A stretch of DNA of 47,956 bases from Klebsiella phage VLCpiS13a. The stretch lies in sequence record NC_071152.1; one strand, written 5' to 3'. Both the position numbers and the translations under genes were made by a program. Shown piece by piece: positions 11,349-31,552 of this stretch. How positions within the stretch are numbered: position 1 is the stretch's first letter; each line of letters opens with the position of its first letter. Below the pieces are notes generated by a model. That model searched no databases. It had not been told where the DNA came from and saw only the letters and a list, made by a program, of their open reading frames with translations.

Positions 11349-11378
11349 GAAAACCCCCGAAAGGGGGTTTATTTTTTC
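11349..11378. terminator. bidirectional rho-independent terminator
   Basis: AAACCCCC-GAAA-GGGGGTTT + T-run. Confidence 0.7.
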
Positions 11379-11752
11379 AGCAATGAAGATACGCGGATAC
11401 TTGAAATGGCATCAATGGTCATCATCATCCTCCTCGCTAATCGCAGTATCGAGTTGTCGGCGCAACATACACAGCGCGCCAGCGGCATAAACTGTGAAAC
11501 CATTCCGTCGAATATCTGGCGGTTTAATTTATTATCAATGCGCGGCCTGATTGCAGACCAGCACGCGCGGATTGATTTGTTAACCTGACGACCTTCAATC
11601 ATCGCCAGTTTTGCAGCCAACTCTACAGTAACAAGCGCATCGAGATATTGCTCGCAGGCGTAGCGGCTATCATCGCCAGATGATGTTTTCACGCCTGTAA
11701 ATTCGCCATAAGAATGAGCGCCATCATCTTCACCTACAGATTCAATATCCAT
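11369..11752 (-). CDS. hypothetical protein (cassette gene 4)
   Basis: 127 aa; ATG overlaps upstream TAA. Confidence 0.45.
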   Translation of the reverse strand: MDIESVGEDDGAHSYGEFTGVKTSSGDDSRYACEQYLDALVTVELAAKLAMIEGRQVNKSIRACWSAIRPRIDNKLNRQIFDGMVSQFMPLARCVCCADNSILRLARRMMMTIDAISSIRVSSLLKK

Positions 11753-12421: not shown

Positions 12422-13135
12422 ATGAGACAACGCACACCGCTAACAGAAATCGGAGAGATGCGCATCTACCTGGATGACAAGTCTTTTTTCTTCAAGCCAT
12501 CATTTGCGGCGATGAATGAGCTTGGCTCACCGAAAGAGATTGTCGAGCTGTACGCCACGCTTAATGGCTATGAATATGCGGCCATGCTCGGCGCCATTCA
12601 GTCTATGCCGTATGGCGCGCAGATTCAGGTTGCAAAAATCCTGTCACGTCCTGTCTATGGCAAGAAAGTGCTCAGCGCCGCCTGCCTCATCATGCAGTCC
12701 TGTTGCGATGATGATATCTCGGTGCTCATTGGGTCATGGAAGCCAACTCCGCGCGGTGTAAAGTACGTCACCGGAAGAATGCCAGTAAATGACATTATTA
12801 TTATTGCTCGCAACCTGATGGAGCATGGCATCATCGGCAAGTCTCCGCTCAAGGTTCCTCAGCGCTCGGAAAACCAAAAGCGCACAACCAGTGAACTGAG
12901 AATGTCTGATTACATCATTTCAGCTCGCACCCATTTCGGAATCACCCGCGAGGAAGCCGAAGACCTGACCATGACCGAGTATCAGCAGATGATAAAATCA
13001 AAATACCCGGAACCGGAAGGCATGACGCGCGAACAGTATGATGCATCCTATGAACGCGCCAGACTGAATAAACAGAAACTTAAAGAGAAAGCCGCCAGAA
13101 AGGCCGCTAAAGAAAAGGAGCGAAATAATGGCTGA
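12422..13135 (+). CDS. tail assembly chaperone
   Basis: 237 aa between major tail and tape measure genes; stop overlaps TMP start. Confidence 0.5.
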   Translation: MRQRTPLTEIGEMRIYLDDKSFFFKPSFAAMNELGSPKEIVELYATLNGYEYAAMLGAIQSMPYGAQIQVAKILSRPVYGKKVLSAACLIMQSCCDDDISVLIGSWKPTPRGVKYVTGRMPVNDIIIIARNLMEHGIIGKSPLKVPQRSENQKRTTSELRMSDYIISARTHFGITREEAEDLTMTEYQQMIKSKYPEPEGMTREQYDASYERARLNKQKLKEKAARKAAKEKERNNG

Positions 13136-16100
13136 AGAAGTTGGCGGCATCGTCTATGAGGTTGGCATTGACACATCTCAGTTAGCGGCTGGTAGTCGTG
13201 AAATAGAGTCAATGCTAAATGACCTTAGTGGGAACATGGGGCGGCTCGAGGCAAGTGTAAACAGGACGGAGCGCTCTATAAGCTCAATGGAAGGAACCAT
13301 GTCGAGCCTCACTGGTGTCGCAAAGGGATTGCTTGCAGCGCTTTCCGTGCAACAGGTCGGGGCCTATGCTCAGGCGTGGCAGGATATGAGTAACAAACTC
13401 TCTAACGCCGTGAGAGACTCTGTTCCGCCGTTCGAAACCCTTGCCGATGTAACTAATCGTGTTTTTGATATCGCGCAGAAAACACGCTCAGGACTGGACG
13501 CAACGGCCACCTTGTACGCCAGACTTGAGAGGTCTACCAGAAGCTATGGTGTAAGCGTGGAAGACCTGACAAGGCTGACAACAATAATCAATCAGGGTTT
13601 TGTTGTGTCCGGCGCGTCAGCTGAGGAGGCGAGCAACGCAATTATCCAGCTTGCACAAGGCATGGCATCTGGCGCCCTTCGGGGAGATGAATTCAACTCA
13701 GTAAACGAGCAGGGCAACCGGCTCATGATAGCTCTTGCCGACTCTCTTGGTGTTGGCATCGGCGAACTTAGGAATATGGCTGCGCAAGGGAAACTGACAA
13801 CTGATGTTATAGTTAATGGCCTTCTTTCGCAGGGAGACAGTATTGGGAGAGAGTTCGCCAAAACAACTTCTACCATCAGCCAGTCTCTGGAGATAGCCGG
13901 AAATAACGTTGCAAGATTCTTTGGGGAAAACGCAACGGTAAAAACAGGCGTAAAAATCTTTAGCGACTCAGTGATACTGGCCAGTGAAAACATTCAGGCT
14001 CTCGGTACAGCGCTAACCATTGTAGCTGGCGTAATGGGGAGCCGTTATGTTGGCGCGCTGGCAATGTCCACTGCCGCGAAAATATCAGATATAGCAGCAT
14101 CAAGACAGCAATTAATAGCTGAGAACCAGCAGGCACAATCAGCACTTGTGGCTGCAAATTCCGCGCAGAGGAAGGCTTTAGCTGATAAAGAGGCGGCGCT
14201 ATCATCTCTGGCGCTTGCTCAGGCTGAATATAACGTAGCAAAAGGCAGTGCAGCCGAGATGCTGGCGCTTGATGCTCTGGTTGCAGCAAAATCAAGAGCT
14301 AGTGCCGCGTCACTATCCCTTGCTCAGGCTGAAAACGCACAGGCTACGGCATCAGCGAGAGCAGCATCCGCGGCAAGCGCTGCATCGGTAGGAATTGGCC
14401 TTGCCAGAGGTGCGCTTTCATTGATAGGCGGGCCAGCAGGCGCGGCGATGTTAGCAGCGGGGGCAATATTTTACTTTTGGCAGAAAGCACAGCAAGCCAG
14501 AGAAGAAGCAATCCGCTTTGCCGATAGTCTGGACAAAGTAAACGCCTCAATGAAGGCGATGAATAATACCCAACTCAGGGGGGCGATAGCTGACGCCAAT
14601 ATTTCAATTTCGGCGCAAAAGGATGCTGTGAGAAATCTGCAAAGTGAAGTTGATGCACTTCGTGAGAGGTATCTTAGCTTCACTCCTGCCGCGCAAGAGG
14701 TGGCTGAGTCACTTGGTCAAGGGTCGCAATTTGCTTCTGATCAGGAAAGGGTGCTCAATGAATTAAATAAAAAATCAAGAGATTTAGCTGATGCTCAGGA
14801 AAAACTAGCAAGAACTCAGGACACGGCAGCAGAAGCAAGCAGAACCCTAACAAACAATATGCTCACGTCAATGGGCGTGCATGATGGCCTGATTGAGAAA
14901 GGCTCGACTCTTGAGAGAGTGCAAGGGGCCGTGGCAAGAGCATTTGGCTTGACTGCTGATGAGATAAATCGAGCTAACCAAGCCGGGCAAAACTTCAACC
15001 CCAAATCCTTGCAAGTGTCGCCCCCAACAGAAGAAGCTGACAAGATAATCCTCAATCTTGAGGAGCAAAATCAACTTTTAAAAATACAGGATGAAAGACA
15101 AAGGGCAGTAACAAAGGCGAGAATGGAGGCAGCTAAGGTAACTGATAACCCCAATCAGATAGCCAGAGCTGGTGAGCTTGCAGGGAAATTATATGATTTG
15201 CAGGAGGCTGAGAAAGCAAGGGAAAAGGCGCTAAATGATTCTCAGTCAGCGGCCAACAAGGCAGCCACAGAGCAGGAGAATATCGCCAATAAGCTTGAGC
15301 AGCTGCGCCAGAAATCACTTCTTTCAGCCGACTCCACCAGAGAGCTAAGCCGGGAGCAGTCAATCCTTGCGGCTCAGCAATCACTAGGTAAGGGCGCGAC
15401 AGAGGAACAAATAAATCTGGCCGGGCAATATGCCGCAAAAGCATGGGATAATGCCAATGCGCTGAAGGCGCAGGCTGAAGCTGAGAAGAAGAGAGTTGAA
15501 GCGGTGAAGGGTTTTGCCGCCCTTAAATCTCAGACATCACCTACTTTTGCTGTTGAGTCAAATTATCAGAAAGACCTTCAGGCGCTAAATGCCTATGCGG
15601 TGGCCTACCCGCAAAAAATAGCCGAGGTACAACAGGCCAGAGCAGCCATTGAAGAGCAGTATCGCCAGCAGCGAGTTGAAGCTATGTGGCAGGAATGGAG
15701 CCAGCAGAATGCCGCCACTCAGGCAGCCGCAGCAGCATTCGAGGCTTTTGGTCAGTCCGCCAGTAACGCGCTGACGGGAGTCATAACTGGCTCGATGTCG
15801 CTCAGTGATGCCCTGCGGTCTATTGGCTCCAATATCCTTAACAGCGTCATTAACTCATTTGTACAGATGGGTGTTGAGTGGGCTAAATCCGCTATCATGG
15901 GTCAGGTTGGCATGACTGCCGCAACAGCAGCTACTGCCGTACAGGCGGCTGGTATCGCCGCTGCAATGGCTCCTGCTGCTGCAATGACATCTCTTGCAAC
16001 TGGTGGCGCTAACGCCATTCCAGCACAGGCTGGCATCACTGCAACCGTCGGTGTTGCTAAAGCAATGTCGGTTGCTGGAGCGTTGAAGAATGGTGGCCCG

Positions 16101-16427
16101 ACACATGCCGGTTCAATGTATCAGGTGGGTGAGGGAAATGCCCCGGAAATCTTCCAGGCTAGCACAGGCAAGCAGTATATGATTCCTGGAGATTCAGGAA
16201 GGGTTATCAGCAACAAAGACCTTACCGGCGGCTCTTCTGGTGGTGGCTTGATTATAAACAATAATGTTTATAATAGTTCAAGCGGAGCAACAGCAACTAC
16301 CAGCGCGAGAGATAATGGAGATGGATCGGTTACAATTGAAACAATTGTCGCAGATATCGAGGCTGGCGGGCCGATATCAAACGCTATTACCAGCCACACC
16401 ACTGCGACAAGAAGGGCTACAGAGTGA
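13128..16427 (+). CDS. tail tape measure protein
   Basis: 1099 aa, Ala/Gln-rich coiled-coil, hydrophobic C-terminal third, canonical position. Confidence 0.9.
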   Translation: MAEEVGGIVYEVGIDTSQLAAGSREIESMLNDLSGNMGRLEASVNRTERSISSMEGTMSSLTGVAKGLLAALSVQQVGAYAQAWQDMSNKLSNAVRDSVPPFETLADVTNRVFDIAQKTRSGLDATATLYARLERSTRSYGVSVEDLTRLTTIINQGFVVSGASAEEASNAIIQLAQGMASGALRGDEFNSVNEQGNRLMIALADSLGVGIGELRNMAAQGKLTTDVIVNGLLSQGDSIGREFAKTTSTISQSLEIAGNNVARFFGENATVKTGVKIFSDSVILASENIQALGTALTIVAGVMGSRYVGALAMSTAAKISDIAASRQQLIAENQQAQSALVAANSAQRKALADKEAALSSLALAQAEYNVAKGSAAEMLALDALVAAKSRASAASLSLAQAENAQATASARAASAASAASVGIGLARGALSLIGGPAGAAMLAAGAIFYFWQKAQQAREEAIRFADSLDKVNASMKAMNNTQLRGAIADANISISAQKDAVRNLQSEVDALRERYLSFTPAAQEVAESLGQGSQFASDQERVLNELNKKSRDLADAQEKLARTQDTAAEASRTLTNNMLTSMGVHDGLIEKGSTLERVQGAVARAFGLTADEINRANQAGQNFNPKSLQVSPPTEEADKIILNLEEQNQLLKIQDERQRAVTKARMEAAKVTDNPNQIARAGELAGKLYDLQEAEKAREKALNDSQSAANKAATEQENIANKLEQLRQKSLLSADSTRELSREQSILAAQQSLGKGATEEQINLAGQYAAKAWDNANALKAQAEAEKKRVEAVKGFAALKSQTSPTFAVESNYQKDLQALNAYAVAYPQKIAEVQQARAAIEEQYRQQRVEAMWQEWSQQNAATQAAAAAFEAFGQSASNALTGVITGSMSLSDALRSIGSNILNSVINSFVQMGVEWAKSAIMGQVGMTAATAATAVQAAGIAAAMAPAAAMTSLATGGANAIPAQAGITATVGVAKAMSVAGALKNGGPTHAGSMYQVGEGNAPEIFQASTGKQYMIPGDSGRVISNKDLTGGSSGGGLIINNNVYNSSSGATATTSARDNGDGSVTIETIVADIEAGGPISNAITSHTTATRRATE

Positions 16428-16434
16428 AATATTA

Positions 16435-16460
16435 AACCCCGCTATTGCGGGGTTATCTTT
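16435..16460. terminator. rho-independent terminator
   Basis: AACCCCGC-TATT-GCGGGGTT + TATCTTT. Confidence 0.6.
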
Positions 16461-16813
16461 CCTATCTCCATCATTAGATCAGGAGTCCTAACCACCCACT
16501 CTATGCACCCATCAAAACCAGAAAGACCAGCCTTTTTAAATTTTCTGTGAAAATGTGACTCTATTTCAGCAGCATTAAATCCAGTTGTTTTTATAATCTT
16601 AATGACATCAAATTGAAATGGGGTATTTCTTGTTAATCTCTTTATTCTTTCAATTTTGTTATGCGTGATACCAATTTTTACCACGCCAAGAGATACAGAC
16701 TCAAGGAAGTAAACATATGCTTTTTTTTGTTGTTCTTTTGAATCCGTATTCGGCGCAATCATGACAACCCTTTCCAAGCATGTGATCTGATGTGAATTGC
16801 AAAAATTCACCAT
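16442..16813 (-). CDS. homing-endonuclease C-terminal part: T5orf172 (GIY-YIG superfamily)-like domain
   Basis: AYVYFLESVSLGVVKIGITHNKIERIKRL motif; overlaps upstream ORF in +1 frame. Confidence 0.55.
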   Translation of the reverse strand: MVNFCNSHQITCLERVVMIAPNTDSKEQQKKAYVYFLESVSLGVVKIGITHNKIERIKRLTRNTPFQFDVIKIIKTTGFNAAEIESHFHRKFKKAGLSGFDGCIEWVVRTPDLMMEIGKITPQ

Positions 16814-17321
16814 GTATGCTGCATAATATTTTAGCCTTCACAGAAGAATTAACAAATGATGATTCATCATACTGATAAAGAAACGAATGAACCTCATTTG
16901 ATTTTTTGACAAAGATGTCAAATGTCAGCCTTCTGTTCTTACTGCATGATGGGCATCCTACTCCTGACATATGATGACTCCTCCTTTGCATGAAGACGCC
17001 ATGCTCCCTGCATATTATTTTAATATATTCTGAAGACACCTCATCATTAACAAGGGAGTAATCATATTTGTATTTATGAATCTTGTTAAACTTATCAATT
17101 AATGAGGATAATGGTGTTTTCTTAGACTCTCTGGCGCACAACCTGCACCCTCCAACCAAGTGGGCGTCAGGCCTTTGCTTGAATTCTCCGTGCTTTTTGC
17201 AGGTTATTGTTATTTTATATTTGGATAGCACATAAACAGTCTTTGAGTAATCATACTTGTCGCCATGAACTTTTTTAGCCCTGGCGATAAACTCTGCCGT
17301 AGTAAGTGGCTTGCGCATCAT
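16701..17321 (-). CDS. homing-endonuclease N-terminal part: three tandem Cys/His zinc-finger-like repeats
   Basis: Repeats CKKHGEFKQRPDAHLVGGCRLCA / CREHGVFMQRRSHHMSGVGCPSCS / CSIHGEFLQFTSDHMLGKGCHDCA. Confidence 0.55.
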   Translation of the reverse strand: MMRKPLTTAEFIARAKKVHGDKYDYSKTVYVLSKYKITITCKKHGEFKQRPDAHLVGGCRLCARESKKTPLSSLIDKFNKIHKYKYDYSLVNDEVSSEYIKIICREHGVFMQRRSHHMSGVGCPSCSKNRRLTFDIFVKKSNEVHSFLYQYDESSFVNSSVKAKILCSIHGEFLQFTSDHMLGKGCHDCAEYGFKRTTKKSICLLP

Positions 17322-17420
17322 TGAATCCTCGGTTAAAGGTGGTTTGAAGTGATGCAGCAGGCGATAACCAATCGCTTTTCATCTGGCCGGACTAGCTGCA
17401 CTGTGATTGTACCATCAACG

Positions 17421-17429
17421 TGCTAAAAT
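17421..17429 (+). promoter_or_regulatory. extended -10 promoter TGCTAAAAT
   Basis: TGnTAAAAT about 26 nt upstream of GGAG-ATG 17455. Confidence 0.35.
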
Positions 17430-17454
17430 ACAACAATACAAAATGGAGACTGCC

Positions 17455-17925
17455 ATGCCTATACCTTACCCTAGCTGGTTGCCTTTAGCGCAAAGAGCCA
17501 GTAAAAACCTAACGTTTCAGACTCCTTTCAGAAAGGATACGCCAGCTGTTGGCGCACCAATATTCCAGAAGCTAACAACCGATGTCTGTGCATCATGGAG
17601 CCTTACGTGGGTCCTTACACTCAGGCAGGAAAGAGCTTTTATTCAGTGGTTAAGAAGCAGCAAATACCTAAACCACTGTAATGAATGGTTTACGATGGAT
17701 ATAGACCTTGGTGGCAGCGGATTACAAAATCAGACTTTGCACTTTACTGATTATCCCGTGCAGACAAGCATCAATGGCGGCATCGTCACATGGACTGGAA
17801 ATGTCATCTGTAAAACTCTCAATAACTCCATGGATGAGTTTGATGATGTGCTTGTTGAGCTTGATGAGCGATGGTATTCATGGCTTGATGAAGTCGTTAA
17901 CAGGGATTTGCCGGAGTATCCATAA
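17455..17925 (+). CDS. minor tail protein (gpM-like)
   Basis: GGAG SD 6 nt before ATG 17455 (ORF open from 17407); follows TMP region. Confidence 0.5.
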
Positions 17926-25556: not shown

Positions 25557-26597
25557 TTAAAAGTTTTCGATGTTTTGCTGAGATGTTGATGGCTTCTCTT
25601 CGGTTGCAGATGGCGAAGGCGCATCTGCTTTCTGGAGTTTGGCCGGGTTGAAATCGTCCTGCGGTGTGATAGTTACCGCTGCTGGCGATTCGTCATTAAT
25701 GAATGATTCAATGCGCTCATACTCCTCTGCTGATGCCTTGAGTGTTGACCATATTTCCCTGATTTTCTTTTTAACTGAATCTGGAATATTTGCAGCCTCA
25801 GCATTCAGTGCCGCAACTCCGCGTGAAGCGGTCATTTGCAACTTTGAGCGCCAATGATCAAACTCTTCATCAATCTTAACGCCAGACTCAACCCATTTAA
25901 TTAAACCTCGCCCATGCGCTTCACCAATATACCCATGATGCTGGCTGTCGCGACCTGATTCAAAAAATATCGGGCGCAGTTCTTCTGGTAGCTTGGTAAA
26001 ATCCTGAATCTTGCCATTGTCATACATCATCATGCTGACGGTCATTTCAAACATGAAATCCTTCTCACATACCGGGTGCAGACCAAGTGGCATAGGGTCT
26101 TTTGGGTTGCTGAAGTCGGTTTTATTGCGCGCACGCAGGCAGACGATGATATGCATATTGCTTTGTAATAATGCACTCATGAACTTCTTATGCTCAGCCT
26201 TGGCGCGCTTCCAGTCTGCCATTTTTTTTCCTTGTAGCAGCGGCTGATCGGCTATATCTGAGCAGCCGCCTTCCCCTTCCCATTCATGCGAACCGGAATC
26301 GATAACCAGCACTTTAACGCCTGCTTTTTGAAACTCTTCGATTGCCTGGCGATAACGGGCAGGACTAAATGGCGCATACAAATCAGCATGCAGGAATTTT
26401 CCATCAAGTATATTTGAATAAAGACGTCCGCGACCGTTTTCCGTGTCCAGAAAACCGATTTCAGACGGTGAGTCAACCATGCCGCGCGCAAGTTTGAGTG
26501 CGCTGTATGTCTTACCACTACCAGACTGGCCGGAGATGCCAATAACTACGCGAGAACCTGAACGTTCAGCAGGCTTGATATCAAGAATTCCCATCAC
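25557..26597 (-). CDS. Sak4-like recombination ATPase (AAA_24 family) with C-terminal extension
   Basis: Walker A GISGQSGSGKT then FLDTENG; adjacent to SSB and exonuclease. Confidence 0.7.
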   Translation of the reverse strand: MMGILDIKPAERSGSRVVIGISGQSGSGKTYSALKLARGMVDSPSEIGFLDTENGRGRLYSNILDGKFLHADLYAPFSPARYRQAIEEFQKAGVKVLVIDSGSHEWEGEGGCSDIADQPLLQGKKMADWKRAKAEHKKFMSALLQSNMHIIVCLRARNKTDFSNPKDPMPLGLHPVCEKDFMFEMTVSMMMYDNGKIQDFTKLPEELRPIFFESGRDSQHHGYIGEAHGRGLIKWVESGVKIDEEFDHWRSKLQMTASRGVAALNAEAANIPDSVKKKIREIWSTLKASAEEYERIESFINDESPAAVTITPQDDFNPAKLQKADAPSPSATEEKPSTSQQNIENF

Positions 26598-27618: not shown

Positions 27619-28035
27619 TCATTCATCAAGCCCAAAATAGAATAACGTCGCTCTTTTTAACTCCTCAATACCATAAGCAATGGCTCCAAAGTGACCCTCT
27701 GCGATGGCGCACTCAAGAACCTCAATCTGTGATGGCGATACATTTGATTTTGTCTTGTCACGGCGCTTCAGTTCAATTAGGCCGCATTTATGATTAACAC
27801 CGTTGGTGAGTATCAAATTATCGCTTACGCCGCTCCTTACACCCATTTTGCGGCGTTTCTCGACGAATTGAGGACCGCTCTTTGTGCCTGTCTCATTAGG
27901 AACATGGAACCACAGAACATCAGGAAATCGGTATTGCATCCAAAGGCCATAGGCCATCTGGTCGGTCTCTTCTTTAGGGCATTCTCCACGATAACCGCTG
28001 TCAAATACCCATATCCCGCTGTCAAGCTGCTTCAA
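27619..28035 (-). CDS. VRR-NUC domain nuclease
   Basis: 138 aa; GVSDNLIL ... GLIELKR PD-(D/E)XK-type motif. Confidence 0.75.
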   Translation of the reverse strand: MKQLDSGIWVFDSGYRGECPKEETDQMAYGLWMQYRFPDVLWFHVPNETGTKSGPQFVEKRRKMGVRSGVSDNLILTNGVNHKCGLIELKRRDKTKSNVSPSQIEVLECAIAEGHFGAIAYGIEELKRATLFYFGLDE

Positions 28036-29959
28036 TTTGTTCTCCTATGAAATCCTTGCGGTGGATGATATCGCGGCCTTTATCGTTAAAACGATGCGTG
28101 ATGCGTTTAGGTGCGCGGATTAAACCGGCGTAATGCATGAAAGTCTTAGCATCATGGCAGTCCATCATTTTCTTCAGCATGGACTTGTCTTCAAGATGCG
28201 GAAGCAGAGCCTTCATTTTAAACATGTCGCGCAGGTGCTTTGGCTTGCCTCCGAACGGATAAAACACCTCATTTGCCCAGCCGGTCTTTCCATCAGCTTT
28301 TACCACCAGGTAACGATAAAGAACCCCCTCAGCGTCTTTGGTCAACTCGACTTTAAAATCTTGTACATCTGTCCATTCTTTATCGGTATAAGCACGCTCA
28401 TTAAGCGCCGCGTTAGGGTCGCGTAAAACGTGATCGCATTGACGGCAATAACGAGCTGTTGGGTCATTTTTTGTGCCGCAACCATCATCAAAAATACGGA
28501 TACCATGCTTGTCGAAACCACAGCGAATGAAGCTGAAAAACTCTTCGCAACGACCATCCTGCGACGTTGAATCTTTACCGATGCAACGCCGTGCATATGG
28601 GCTGTTCATCGTCTGGCATTTAGGGCATGGAACCTGCTCTCCGCTGCGTTTTGCGCGCTGTGCTTCTGCTTCTTCCAGAATTGGGTCTTCATACAGCTGA
28701 CCAAGTTCAAACATCGTACCAGAGAAATCAAGGACCAGATGGTCTTCTTTATGATACCCGGCGTCAATGTGCTCTTTTTTAAGGAGCCGCATACCGCGAC
28801 CTAATAGCTGCACAAGAAGGGTAAGTGACATTATTTTCCTTAGCACGACTGAGCAATCCCAAAGAGGGATGTTAACGCCAGTAGTTAATGCAGCAACCTG
28901 AAGTGTGTATTTTATTTTTCCTGTATATGCGTCTTTAAGCGCCTTTCTCCTGGCTTTCATGCCCATATCTTCTGTCACTATGGCATAACTTCCCTCAGGA
29001 AGACGTTTGGCCACATCTCTGCAATGTCTCTTTCCGGCACATGTAATTAGAACCCCGTTTCGATTAGAAGTAAGCGCGATAACTTTTGCCATGATTTTAT
29101 CGAGCTTGTCATCTTGTTTGAGAATGCTATTTTCCATTTGTTTCAGCTGCTCAGCTGTAAAGTCTTGAGTACCGTCAACATCAGAACCATGAAAATCTGA
29201 CAGGTCGTATTGCAAATCATCCGTATCATTTAGACCAAAGATTGTTGGAACAACGAATCCGCGATCAACCATGTACTTAGTATCAATGTTAATTATCTCG
29301 TGCTTCCAGTAAGCGCCCTTCATTGATTCAGTCCCGCGGAATGGACTTCCAGTGAAAGCGATTGTGATCATGTCGTGTCCATACTTCGCCTTGCACCGTC
29401 GATTTAGCTCAGTGAGTATCACACCATATTGTGTTGTTGGATTATCACTAACAACATCCTGCCACGGAACTTGGTGACCTTCATCGCACAGGCAGAATCT
29501 AGGAGTGAAATCTGACAGGTCTGATTTTTTGATTACTTCACCTGATTCATCTTTTTTGTCAAAAAGAGAATTTATAATTGTTCCTTCTGTGGCGCAAATT
29601 ATTGGATATGCAGTACTCTTTCGCCCTAGAGACGCGCTATACAGAGAATTTTTAACACCAAAGTTCCAGAGCTCACTTGCATCCTGGTCAATAATTTCAG
29701 ACTGTCTGGCAATGACAAGACCATCCCATCCCATATCTTGAAATCTGCTGCACAGCATTGAAATCATCACGGTTTTACCGCTAGAAACAGAAGCAGTAAC
29801 ATAGCTTGGTTTAGGGTCTTTACCAAAGTTGCGGATTACTTCTGCGCACTTGGCATACACCAGCCACTGGTAATCATATGGCTCTATGAGCCCCGGCTTG
29901 ATAGATTGCTTTAACTTTTCAATGTCAAGCTCTGCAATCATTTTGTCTATTTTATGCAT
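28022..29959 (-). CDS. SF2 ATP-dependent DNA helicase with C-terminal zinc-ribbon region
   Basis: Motif I SVSSGKT, motif II DEGH, later helicase motifs; CPKCQT..C and CRQCDHV zinc ribbons. Confidence 0.85.
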   Translation of the reverse strand: MHKIDKMIAELDIEKLKQSIKPGLIEPYDYQWLVYAKCAEVIRNFGKDPKPSYVTASVSSGKTVMISMLCSRFQDMGWDGLVIARQSEIIDQDASELWNFGVKNSLYSASLGRKSTAYPIICATEGTIINSLFDKKDESGEVIKKSDLSDFTPRFCLCDEGHQVPWQDVVSDNPTTQYGVILTELNRRCKAKYGHDMITIAFTGSPFRGTESMKGAYWKHEIINIDTKYMVDRGFVVPTIFGLNDTDDLQYDLSDFHGSDVDGTQDFTAEQLKQMENSILKQDDKLDKIMAKVIALTSNRNGVLITCAGKRHCRDVAKRLPEGSYAIVTEDMGMKARRKALKDAYTGKIKYTLQVAALTTGVNIPLWDCSVVLRKIMSLTLLVQLLGRGMRLLKKEHIDAGYHKEDHLVLDFSGTMFELGQLYEDPILEEAEAQRAKRSGEQVPCPKCQTMNSPYARRCIGKDSTSQDGRCEEFFSFIRCGFDKHGIRIFDDGCGTKNDPTARYCRQCDHVLRDPNAALNERAYTDKEWTDVQDFKVELTKDAEGVLYRYLVVKADGKTGWANEVFYPFGGKPKHLRDMFKMKALLPHLEDKSMLKKMMDCHDAKTFMHYAGLIRAPKRITHRFNDKGRDIIHRKDFIGEQIEAA

Positions 29960-29962
29960 AGC

Positions 29963-30529
29963 TCACCCTAAATTAACAAACTCTTTATGATTAACCACCA
30001 TGAATTCACGAATCGCCTTTTCTGCTGATTCTATGGTATTAAACAAGCCAAGATGAATCCTCTTCTTGTTTATTGATGTCTGCGCTCTCCATTTGTTGCA
30101 TCTTTTATCGAAATGCACACCTTTTACACCAGATTTATTTGTTGATTTCTTTTTCATGTTGAACATGTTTTGTTGATGACTGGAAATTCTAAGGTTACAA
30201 ATTCGATTGTCTGACTTATCACCATTTATATGGTCTATTTCATGCCCATCTATGTCTTCTCCATAAACATAAATCCATGCCAATCTATGCGCGAAAAACA
30301 GCCTTGATCCAACCCTTATTTTTATGTACCCACGTGAGTTTTTATATCCAGCAATATCTCCTGGCTTGACATTTCTTGAGTTGCCATTAATCCACTTAAA
30401 AACCCCAGTGTCAGGGTTGTAATCAAGAGCCTCCATAAGCCTTTCCTGTGAAACCTTTAGCTTTTCTTTCTTCCCTGAAGTTTTTAAGTCTGCATCCTGA
30501 GCAGCAGAACTCAGCTCTTGATGTTCCAT
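29963..30529 (-). CDS. HNH homing endonuclease with AP2 DNA-binding domain
   Basis: HNH_3 motif YIKIRVGSRLFFAHRLAWIYVYGED..EIDHINGDKSDNRICNLR and AP2-like GVHFDKRCNKWRAQTSINKKRIHLG. Confidence 0.85.
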   Translation of the reverse strand: MEHQELSSAAQDADLKTSGKKEKLKVSQERLMEALDYNPDTGVFKWINGNSRNVKPGDIAGYKNSRGYIKIRVGSRLFFAHRLAWIYVYGEDIDGHEIDHINGDKSDNRICNLRISSHQQNMFNMKKKSTNKSGVKGVHFDKRCNKWRAQTSINKKRIHLGLFNTIESAEKAIREFMVVNHKEFVNLG

Positions 30530-30641: not shown

Positions 30642-30670
30642 AAATTACAATGAATCTACATCATAGTCAA
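30642..30670 (-). promoter_or_regulatory. promoter TTGACT-N17-TAATTT carrying TGATGTAGATTC element
   Basis: Reverse complement of 30642-30670; tandem with promoter at 30588. Confidence 0.45.
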
Positions 30671-30682
30671 CTGGAAGAAATT

Positions 30683-31552
30683 ATGCGATACGACTGGAAG
30701 GATATAGAGCCTTTAATGGTTGGCAACTGGCAGGCCGCTATCATGTCGATAGTCAATGTCGATATGCGAATTTTTAATGGCAAGCATCAGCCATGCCCGA
30801 GCTGCGCTGGCACGGACAGGTTCCGCTTTGATGACCATTTAGACTACAAAGGTGACGGCGGCGCCATCTGCAACCAGTGCGGAAACGGCAGCGGAATCAC
30901 CTGGTTAATGAAGCTGTCAGGAATGACGTTTCCAGAGTCAATAGAGGCACTGGCCGGATTTCTGAACATGCATCCACGAGAAAAACTTGAGGCGATTAGA
31001 AAACAACTACCTAAGGTCAACCATGCTTCTGACTATCTGACAGCGGCAGAAGTTGAGGCAATCATGAAAAAAGCAGGCGACGACACCATAACCGGTAAAA
31101 CTGGTGAACTGGTAGCGATACCGCTCTATATGGCAGGCACCATGACGCCATGCAATGTGGCTTTTCTGGCAGATGATGAAAGCGTGTTATTTCGCGCGGG
31201 TTTCAGCTATGAGTACACTCGCGGAAGACTTACGCGAGGCGCTGTTACACCGATTGGTGAAAAAACAGAGTGGACATACCTTGTATCCAATTACTTTGAC
31301 GCATGGCGAGCGCATCGGCTTACTGGCGCTCATGTCTGGTGTTGCTGGTCGCCTGAAAACATGTGGGAAGTTGTTCGCAACGTGAGCGATGAGCAGCGCA
31401 CTAAACTGCGTTGCATCATTAATAATAATTTTGATGAGGTATGTGCCGCCGAGAATGCAGACCTGCCGATACTGATCACTGATGATGGTCAGGATATCCG
31501 CTATAGCAGCGCCATCAGAAAGAGGCTGTATAAACCAGAAGAACTATTTTAG
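30683..31552 (+). CDS. DNA primase (zinc-binding N-terminus)
   Basis: CPSCAGTDRFRFDD ... CNQCG zinc motif; position in replication module; ATG 30683 preferred over upstream ATG 30650 that overlaps promoter motif. Confidence 0.55.
   Translation: MRYDWKDIEPLMVGNWQAAIMSIVNVDMRIFNGKHQPCPSCAGTDRFRFDDHLDYKGDGGAICNQCGNGSGITWLMKLSGMTFPESIEALAGFLNMHPREKLEAIRKQLPKVNHASDYLTAAEVEAIMKKAGDDTITGKTGELVAIPLYMAGTMTPCNVAFLADDESVLFRAGFSYEYTRGRLTRGAVTPIGEKTEWTYLVSNYFDAWRAHRLTGAHVWCCWSPENMWEVVRNVSDEQRTKLRCIINNNFDEVCAAENADLPILITDDGQDIRYSSAIRKRLYKPEELF

Follow-up and report, generated by a model that had tools for sequence, protein, structure and literature searches.

In Klebsiella phage VLCpiS13a, the tape measure gene and the tail gene that follows it are separated by two open reading frames, which overlap in different frames and meet at a run of eight A residues. 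This raises the question of whether they are one endonuclease gene expressed through a programmed frameshift, one gene broken by a recent mutation, one gene misread during sequencing, or two genes that work separately. A sequence-only reading of the locus had taken them for the halves of a homing-endonuclease-like gene joined by a +1 shift, and had proposed programmed slippage or frameshifting as a means of regulation, with an inactivating mutation or a homopolymer error as fallback readings. Here, we compared the locus with its counterparts in related phages and metagenomic contigs, using as reference the window, that is, the whole analysed stretch of 47,956 nt (sequence record NC_071152.1). 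Our results indicate that the A8 tract is probably a real, recent and non-programmed mutation that inactivates or weakens the gene.

The whole gene, with its frame broken by one surplus A, spans 16442 to 17321 on the minus strand and would encode three Zn-ribbon DNA-binding repeats followed by a T5orf172/MUG113 nuclease domain. The upstream ORF (17321 to 16701, minus strand, 206 aa) carries three DUF723/CapR-like C-x2-H...C-x2-C repeats—the three Cys/His repeats of the sequence-only reading are plainly visible—and has the C-terminus ...EYGFKRTTKKSICLLP*, which consists of six out-of-frame codons (SICLLP) and then a stop. Save for a later start codon, GenBank protein YP_010685762.1 (P0123; 205 aa; 'hypothetical protein PRB89_gp70') is the product of this ORF. 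The downstream ORF (16813 to 16442, minus strand, 123 aa), which reads ...KEQQKKAYVYFLESVSLGVVKIG..., overlaps the upstream ORF in another frame. The part coding for the T5orf172/MUG113 (GIY-YIG clan) domain (16442 to 16720, minus strand) stands in the +1 frame relative to the upstream ORF and contains no further stops or indels. The one-base insertion lies in the A8 tract (16721 to 16728; plus strand, T8), which codes, on the minus strand, for the linker (T-T-K-K) between the DNA-binding and nuclease modules; the coding strand around it reads AACAACAAAAAAAAGCAT, with A8 at 16728-16721. The overlap of the two frames at this run, as first described, is thus confirmed from the sequence. Because the span of 16442-17321 is 880 nt, or 3x293+1 (3n+1), joining the upstream to the downstream frame takes a +1 shift, equal to the loss of one A. 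Removal of one A yields a fused protein of 292 aa (...GFKRTTKK-AYVYFLES...), whose junction peptide is ...TTKKAYVYFLESVSLGVVK.

In the fused protein, the Pfam profiles MUG113 (42.2 bits, cut-off 22.3) and T5orf172 (25.1 bits, cut-off 20) both match residues 202-276, and its N-terminal two thirds give weak Pfam matches to DUF723 and DUF4379 (Zn ribbon), the former with 18.5 bits, slightly below the cut-off of 20.9 in the Pfam scan; among precomputed Pfam hits, PF05265 is listed for all close orthologues. In an alignment of 14 sequences (A2), the three C-x2-H...C-x2-C repeats, each of ∼60 aa, show invariant C/H/G columns, and the nuclease domain shows the invariant residues Y202-V-Y-F-L206, K215-I-G217-x-T219, R225, E254, F257-H258, and E274-W275. 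By analogy with GIY-YIG enzymes, these conserved GIY-YIG-like residues would have catalytic roles. Assignment to the T5orf172/MUG113 family hence has both a profile score above threshold and the GIY-YIG-like motif residues behind it. PHROG 681 ('endonuclease') matches residues 6-280 in a single stretch that spans the junction, and the alignment of the fused protein to single-ORF proteins (E = 3e-176, 100% coverage) is far beyond chance. The two-domain reconstruction offered by the sequence-only reading, by a +1 shift or a one-nucleotide deletion, therefore stands, on the Pfam and PHROG 681 matches to the 292-aa protein as well as on the existence of single-ORF orthologues. A sequence search of the PDB detected no solved structure for the endonuclease, and NCBIfam gave no usable match. 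On these profile and motif matches, the gene product is a predicted site-specific nuclease.

The nature of the frame break is best judged from the same site in other copies of the gene. Seventeen other sequenced copies read across the A-run site, two of which (L005 and L009) do so at the junction only. They comprise the copies of BS5, Bas80, VLCpiS13b, and RCIP0103; the IMG/VR and ENA contigs L004, L005, and L009; the Logan contigs L010-L013, L016, and L024-L027; and also L022/L023. All 17 are in frame at the site, and the copies read end to end are single ORFs of 290-296 aa (291 aa in Skatevirus BS5 and E. coli phage Bas80, 295 aa in VLCpiS13b and RCIP0103, 296 aa in L004), with the exception of L022/L023, where a lesion lies elsewhere in the gene. 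Several of these orthologues are named 'endonuclease' in the databases (YP_010053889.1 of BS5, XPK40585.1 of Bas80, and YP_010686023.1 of VLCpiS13b), and their locus is constant: the gene is convergent with the tape measure gene and is followed by the ∼156-aa tail gene where the contig reaches that far. The site itself reads A7 in L004, L005, L009, L010, L013, L016, RCIP0103, L022, L024, and L025, GA6 in VLCpiS13b, AAAAAGAAA in L011 and L012, and AAACAAAAC in BS5 and Bas80; A8 is found only in the VLCpiS13a window and in its twin contig L015. The closest copy, L016 (protein P0126, assembled in six sequencing runs), is intact over its 876 nt and 94% identical in DNA over the whole gene; apart from a different start codon, the A at gene position 594 is the sole indel within the gene. 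The VLCpiS13a gene is thus A7 plus one A in what is normally a single-ORF gene.

According to the sequence-only reading, intact single-frame orthologues free of an A run would speak against its proposal. Intact single-frame orthologues do exist, which largely refutes the proposal on its own terms, although the nearest of them keep an A7 run, in frame. Both of the fallback readings, a recent inactivating mutation or a homopolymer error, fit the data. One apparent second truncated allele, P0125 (178 aa, 13 contigs), was considered and rejected: contigs L024-L027 translate to an intact 295-aa ORF, so that P0125 is simply a short gene call.

These comparisons bear most directly on programmed recoding, under which the A8 tract would be a selected slippage or +1 site that sets a fixed low ratio of nuclease to truncated DNA-binding protein. 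Several features speak for this: tRNA-Lys can re-pair in the +1 frame on A8 (AAA AAA A -> AA AAA AA), runs of 8-9 A permit productive RNA-polymerase slippage in some bacteria (PMC1088944), the run is placed precisely at the domain linker, and the truncated product would be a whole DNA-binding module. However, the arrangement is absent from all 17 other copies, even at 94% identity, the A run is interrupted by G or C in several orthologues, frame repair in the mRNA takes a 1-nt deletion or a 2-nt insertion, and frameshifted homing-endonuclease genes are common as decay products (PMC10448857). The slippery motif is not kept among orthologues, which have A7, GA6, AAAAAGAAA or AAACAAAAC in its place. 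Further, inspection of the sequence upstream of A8 found no Shine-Dalgarno-like motif, the run is followed by AGC, with neither a stop nor a rare codon at the site, and downstream no RNA structure was apparent, as the 106 nt that begin at the run are no more stably folded than shuffled sequence (z = -0.89). From a programmed shift, one would expect conservation and, as a rule, stimulators; neither is the case here, which points to a non-programmed one-base insertion.

The comparison with well-studied recoding systems leads in the same direction. As in prfB/RF2 +1 frameshifting and in dnaX or IS slippage, the overlapping frames meet at a homopolymeric or slippery site, but the sites in prfB, dnaX, and IS elements are conserved across homologues and accompanied by stimulators, none of which were found in the VLCpiS13a gene. 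In prfB, these are a Shine-Dalgarno-like element and an in-frame stop, and IS elements have preserved A runs. With the two-frame layout present in 0 of 17 other copies and with no stimulators at the run, the original proposal of programmed slippage or +1 frameshifting as regulation is not upheld, and we regard programmed recoding as extremely unlikely. Had the shift been programmed, this would be the first recoding-controlled homing endonuclease of the T5orf172 family; the comparative data argue against it.

A non-programmed insertion need not silence the gene completely. The run length prone to slippage in bacterial genomes is typically 9 and sometimes 8, and slippage can by accident restore mutated ORFs (Baranov et al. 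2005, PMC1088944). The VLCpiS13a gene resembles such adventitious rescue in that its frameshift lies within an A run, on which RNA polymerase can occasionally gain or lose a base, and differs from the typical bacterial case in that its run is 8 rather than 9 (PMC1088944); rescue would take the loss of 1 nt or the gain of 2 nt. As A8 is at the lower edge of these lengths, a low level of rescue can be imagined, so that some full-length protein may arise from an allele that is leaky and not null. There is no sign that such rescue is under selection.

More elaborate roles for the run receive little credence. The linker A tract, which is A7 in most close copies, might act as a reversible on/off or attenuation switch—a contingency locus in a virulent phage—an idea that we consider very improbable. 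Under such a switch, the A8 allele would make mainly the nuclease-less DNA-binding protein plus a trickle of full-length nuclease by slippage of RNA polymerase or the ribosome, and the nuclease-less protein could occupy or protect the target site or repress the neighbouring tail genes. Taken as a class, functional designs with two products appear quite improbable. The least probable of the explanations weighed here is that the two frames are separately working genes, one for a 206-aa Zn-ribbon regulator similar to the satellite repressor CapR and the other for a nuclease started from an internal ATG at 16813 or 16762. Both ORFs are indeed open, and there are domesticated DNA-binding proteins of the T5orf172 family, such as CapR (PMC10448857; bioRxiv 10.1101/2020.11.28.402263). 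Against this, inspection found no Shine-Dalgarno sequence before ATG 16813 or ATG 16762, the split is unique to VLCpiS13a, and the 94% identity to an intact gene leaves no time for specialisation of the split products.

If the run is a plain one-base insertion, it may still have arisen either in the phage or in the sequence record. In the latter case, the phage would truly carry A7 and an intact 292-aa gene, the surplus A being a base-calling or polishing artefact, and the observations that speak for this are that the difference from the nearest orthologues is exactly one homopolymer base, the classic type of error, and that the downstream domain is otherwise intact. However, the Logan assembly of run ERR7847549 contains a 2474-nt contig (L015) that is 100% identical to window positions 15263-17736, including A8. 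An exact look-up of the 826-aa tail protein, intended to show if this run contains the complete phage, gave no record. ERR7847549 may be the depositors' own read set, and hence the very reads behind the deposited genome, which would weaken this agreement; L015 nonetheless comes from a different, k-mer-based assembler and gives the same consensus. Its 2.5 kb free of errors suggest accurate short reads, which would rarely miscall an 8-mer in a consensus. Moreover, the window encodes counterparts of ∼60 GP-1 proteins without a break in frame, and the only other 8-mer run, A8 at 26222-26229, lies inside an intact ORF of 346 aa, so that the assembly is without a general signature of homopolymer error. 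On this basis, A8 is probably real in the phage DNA; a base-calling error is less likely than a real mutation and is, as an explanation, rather unlikely.

We thus favour a mutational origin, in which the A7 tract coding for the inter-domain linker (Thr-Lys-Lys) would have gained one A to become A8, presumably by replication slippage; after fixation, selfish endonuclease genes are disabled by such mutations again and again. With A8, translation stops six codons on, leaving a 206-aa protein with DNA-binding repeats and no nuclease; at most, chance slips of RNA polymerase or the ribosome on A8 might restore a little full-length enzyme. The lesion appears to be recent, because the nuclease domain has no extra stops or indels. 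Among the nearly invariant positions of its nuclease domain in alignment A2, the window shows a replacement of its own at only one, T273I, beside the invariant E274, and a single replacement of this kind gives little independent sign of relaxed selection. A lesion of different origin is seen in L022 (1149-2028; Logan ERR9715039) and in L023, where the same gene is frameshifted at another homopolymer near codon 58: the sequence reads GTTGGGGGGGTG (G7) instead of GTT-GGAGGGTG and leaves a 59-aa fragment, and the downstream A7 of L022 is in frame with the remainder of the gene. This second, different lesion in the L022/L023 lineage fits a pattern of scattered decay.

The surroundings of the gene speak for its identity as a mobile element. 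VLCpiS13a is one of a group of siphophages that infect Klebsiella, Salmonella, and E. coli and have genomes of ∼46-48 kb; in the phage collection, vB_KpS_GP-1 matches the VLCpiS13a genome best, with 93% identity across 79% of the first 25 kb. Comparison of the junction between the tape measure and minor tail genes with relatives that lack the insert, which the sequence-only reading had suggested as a check, could be made in vB_KpS_GP-1 and KP591P3: here, the stop codon of the tape measure gene and the start codon of the gene after it overlap (TAATG), with nothing in between. Relative to these empty sites, VLCpiS13a carries an inserted cassette of 1027 nt (16428 to 17454) that starts directly after the tape measure stop codon and finishes directly before the ATG at 17455. 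The site is likewise occupied in VLCpiS13b, RCIP0103, BS5, Bas80, and several metagenomic contigs, which makes it a presence/absence polymorphism at one precise site among collinear relatives. The left flank is the tape measure protein gene (13128 to 16427, plus strand, 1099 aa) and the right flank the next tail gene (17455 to 17925, plus strand, 156 aa from MPIPYP...), whose orthologues are annotated as baseplate or minor tail protein, so the position between these two genes was correctly recognised from the start. Also correct was the description of the gene as AT-rich relative to its neighbours, with a GC content of 37% compared to 51% in the tape measure gene, 45% in the downstream tail genes, and 47.8% in the whole window. 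The combination of exact-site presence or absence, foreign base composition, and essential-gene neighbours is, as far as genome comparison can tell, the signature of a free-standing homing endonuclease gene. The homing-endonuclease-like identity proposed earlier is supported by the T5orf172/MUG113 domain together with the empty and occupied sites, and we describe the feature as a putative free-standing homing-endonuclease-like gene on a 1-kb AT-rich cassette, with predicted nuclease and homing activity.

Both ends of the cassette contain possible signals for transcription. In a consensus scan, 16435 to 16454 stood out as a GC-rich hairpin (AACCCCGC-nnnn-GCGGGGTT), followed on either strand by a T-rich tail. 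The hairpin overlaps the endonuclease stop codon and may terminate transcription in both directions, from the tape measure gene and from the endonuclease gene convergent with it. If it ends transcription of the plus strand, expression of the tail genes behind it would depend on read-through or on a new promoter in 17322-17454; in relatives without the insert, the same tail genes are translationally coupled (TAATG). The intergenic leader of the cassette, delimited by inspection, covers 133 nt (17322 to 17454). On its minus strand, a possible extended −10 promoter can be discerned by eye (TTGTAT at 17433-17428, a 16-nt spacer, and TGgTACAAT at 17414-17406), a site that the promoter scan did not call because its −35 hexamer fits in only 3 of 6 positions; on the plus strand of the leader, GGAG precedes the start codon of the next tail gene (ATG, 17455). 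The flank itself is also variable: the tape measure protein has 1099 aa compared to 973 aa in GP-1, and only the C-terminal ∼470 residues align, with 78% identity. Beside the cassette, divergence is thus much higher than in the genome as a whole (∼93% identity on average), as would be expected if nuclease genes mark recombination boundaries (PMC10448857).

Within the gene, the two modules have different histories. The copies fall into a type A (the window, L016, L010, and BS5) and a type B (VLCpiS13b, RCIP0103, L004, and L013), which share ∼35-50% DNA identity in the Zn-ribbon region and 86-100% in the nuclease region, with up to 100% in 60-nt windows against L013. VLCpiS13b and RCIP0103, for instance, have another set of Zn-ribbon repeats (∼40% nucleotide identity) and a nearly identical nuclease module. 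The switch in identity between types lies just upstream of the A run (window compared to L003, L004, L007, and L013), which suggests that the DNA-binding module was swapped with a breakpoint at this position and agrees with the modular DNA-binding domains described by Barth, Dunham and Seed (PMC10448857). As the first ∼560 nt of the VLCpiS13a gene have BS5-type identity and the last ∼310 nt have VLCpiS13b-type identity, we considered the frameshift as the recombination joint of a recent chimera and rejected this idea, since L016 (P0126) is 94% identical along the whole gene. Given this uniform identity, the modules were exchanged before the frameshift arose, and the two events are not connected.

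The VLCpiS13a gene thus extends a picture known from other phages. T5orf172 homing-endonuclease genes usually bear one or more CapR/DUF723/DUF4379 Zn-finger repeats; they are present in some isolates of related phages and absent from others, often with frameshifts (Barth, Dunham and Seed 2023, PMC10448857). Like the T5orf172 genes of Vibrio phage ICP1 and other phages in that work, the present gene (i) combines N-terminal Zn-finger repeats with a C-terminal T5orf172/MUG113 domain; (ii) is free-standing beside essential structural genes, variably present, and disabled by frameshifts in some alleles; and (iii) shows swapped DNA-binding modules with the nuclease module kept. It differs from them in its lineage, that is, siphophages of Klebsiella, Salmonella, and E. 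coli, and in its locus between the tape measure gene and the tail gene that comes next. For the ICP1 genes, homing had not been shown experimentally as of PMC10448857. The orthologues of BS5, Bas80, and VLCpiS13b have the same locus, orientation, and two-domain protein (291-295 aa) but are single ORFs, whereas the VLCpiS13a copy has one surplus A. In practice, the annotation of both 'hypothetical protein' ORFs should be merged into a single T5orf172-type endonuclease gene with a frameshift, flagged as a pseudogene or for a sequence check. More generally, the locus adds one further example of nuclease genes at the boundaries of essential genes, with swaps of DNA-binding modules and decay by small indels.

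Two further observations were made elsewhere in the genome. A second free-standing endonuclease-like gene (29963-30529, minus strand, 188 aa), with an HNH motif (HEIDHINGDKSDNRICNL) and an AP2-like C-terminal region, is flanked by a helicase-like gene (28022-29959) and a primase-like gene (30650-31552). GP-1 protein 0014 resembles the product of this gene in its C-terminal part (35% identity) and the first Zn-ribbon repeat of the gene at 16442-17321 in its N-terminus, a double match that indicates a shuffling of domains among the nuclease genes of this phage group. The other observation concerns the ORF at 11369-11752 (minus strand), where, at ∼11483, the window is one base shorter than vB_KpS_GP-1 (GCCGC-TGG compared to GCCGCATGG), outside any homopolymer. 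Through this one-base difference, the last ∼22 codons of a small hypothetical protein are read in the other frame, giving an ORF of 127 aa compared to 102 aa, which runs on into the following small ORF; relatives are 83-87% identical there.
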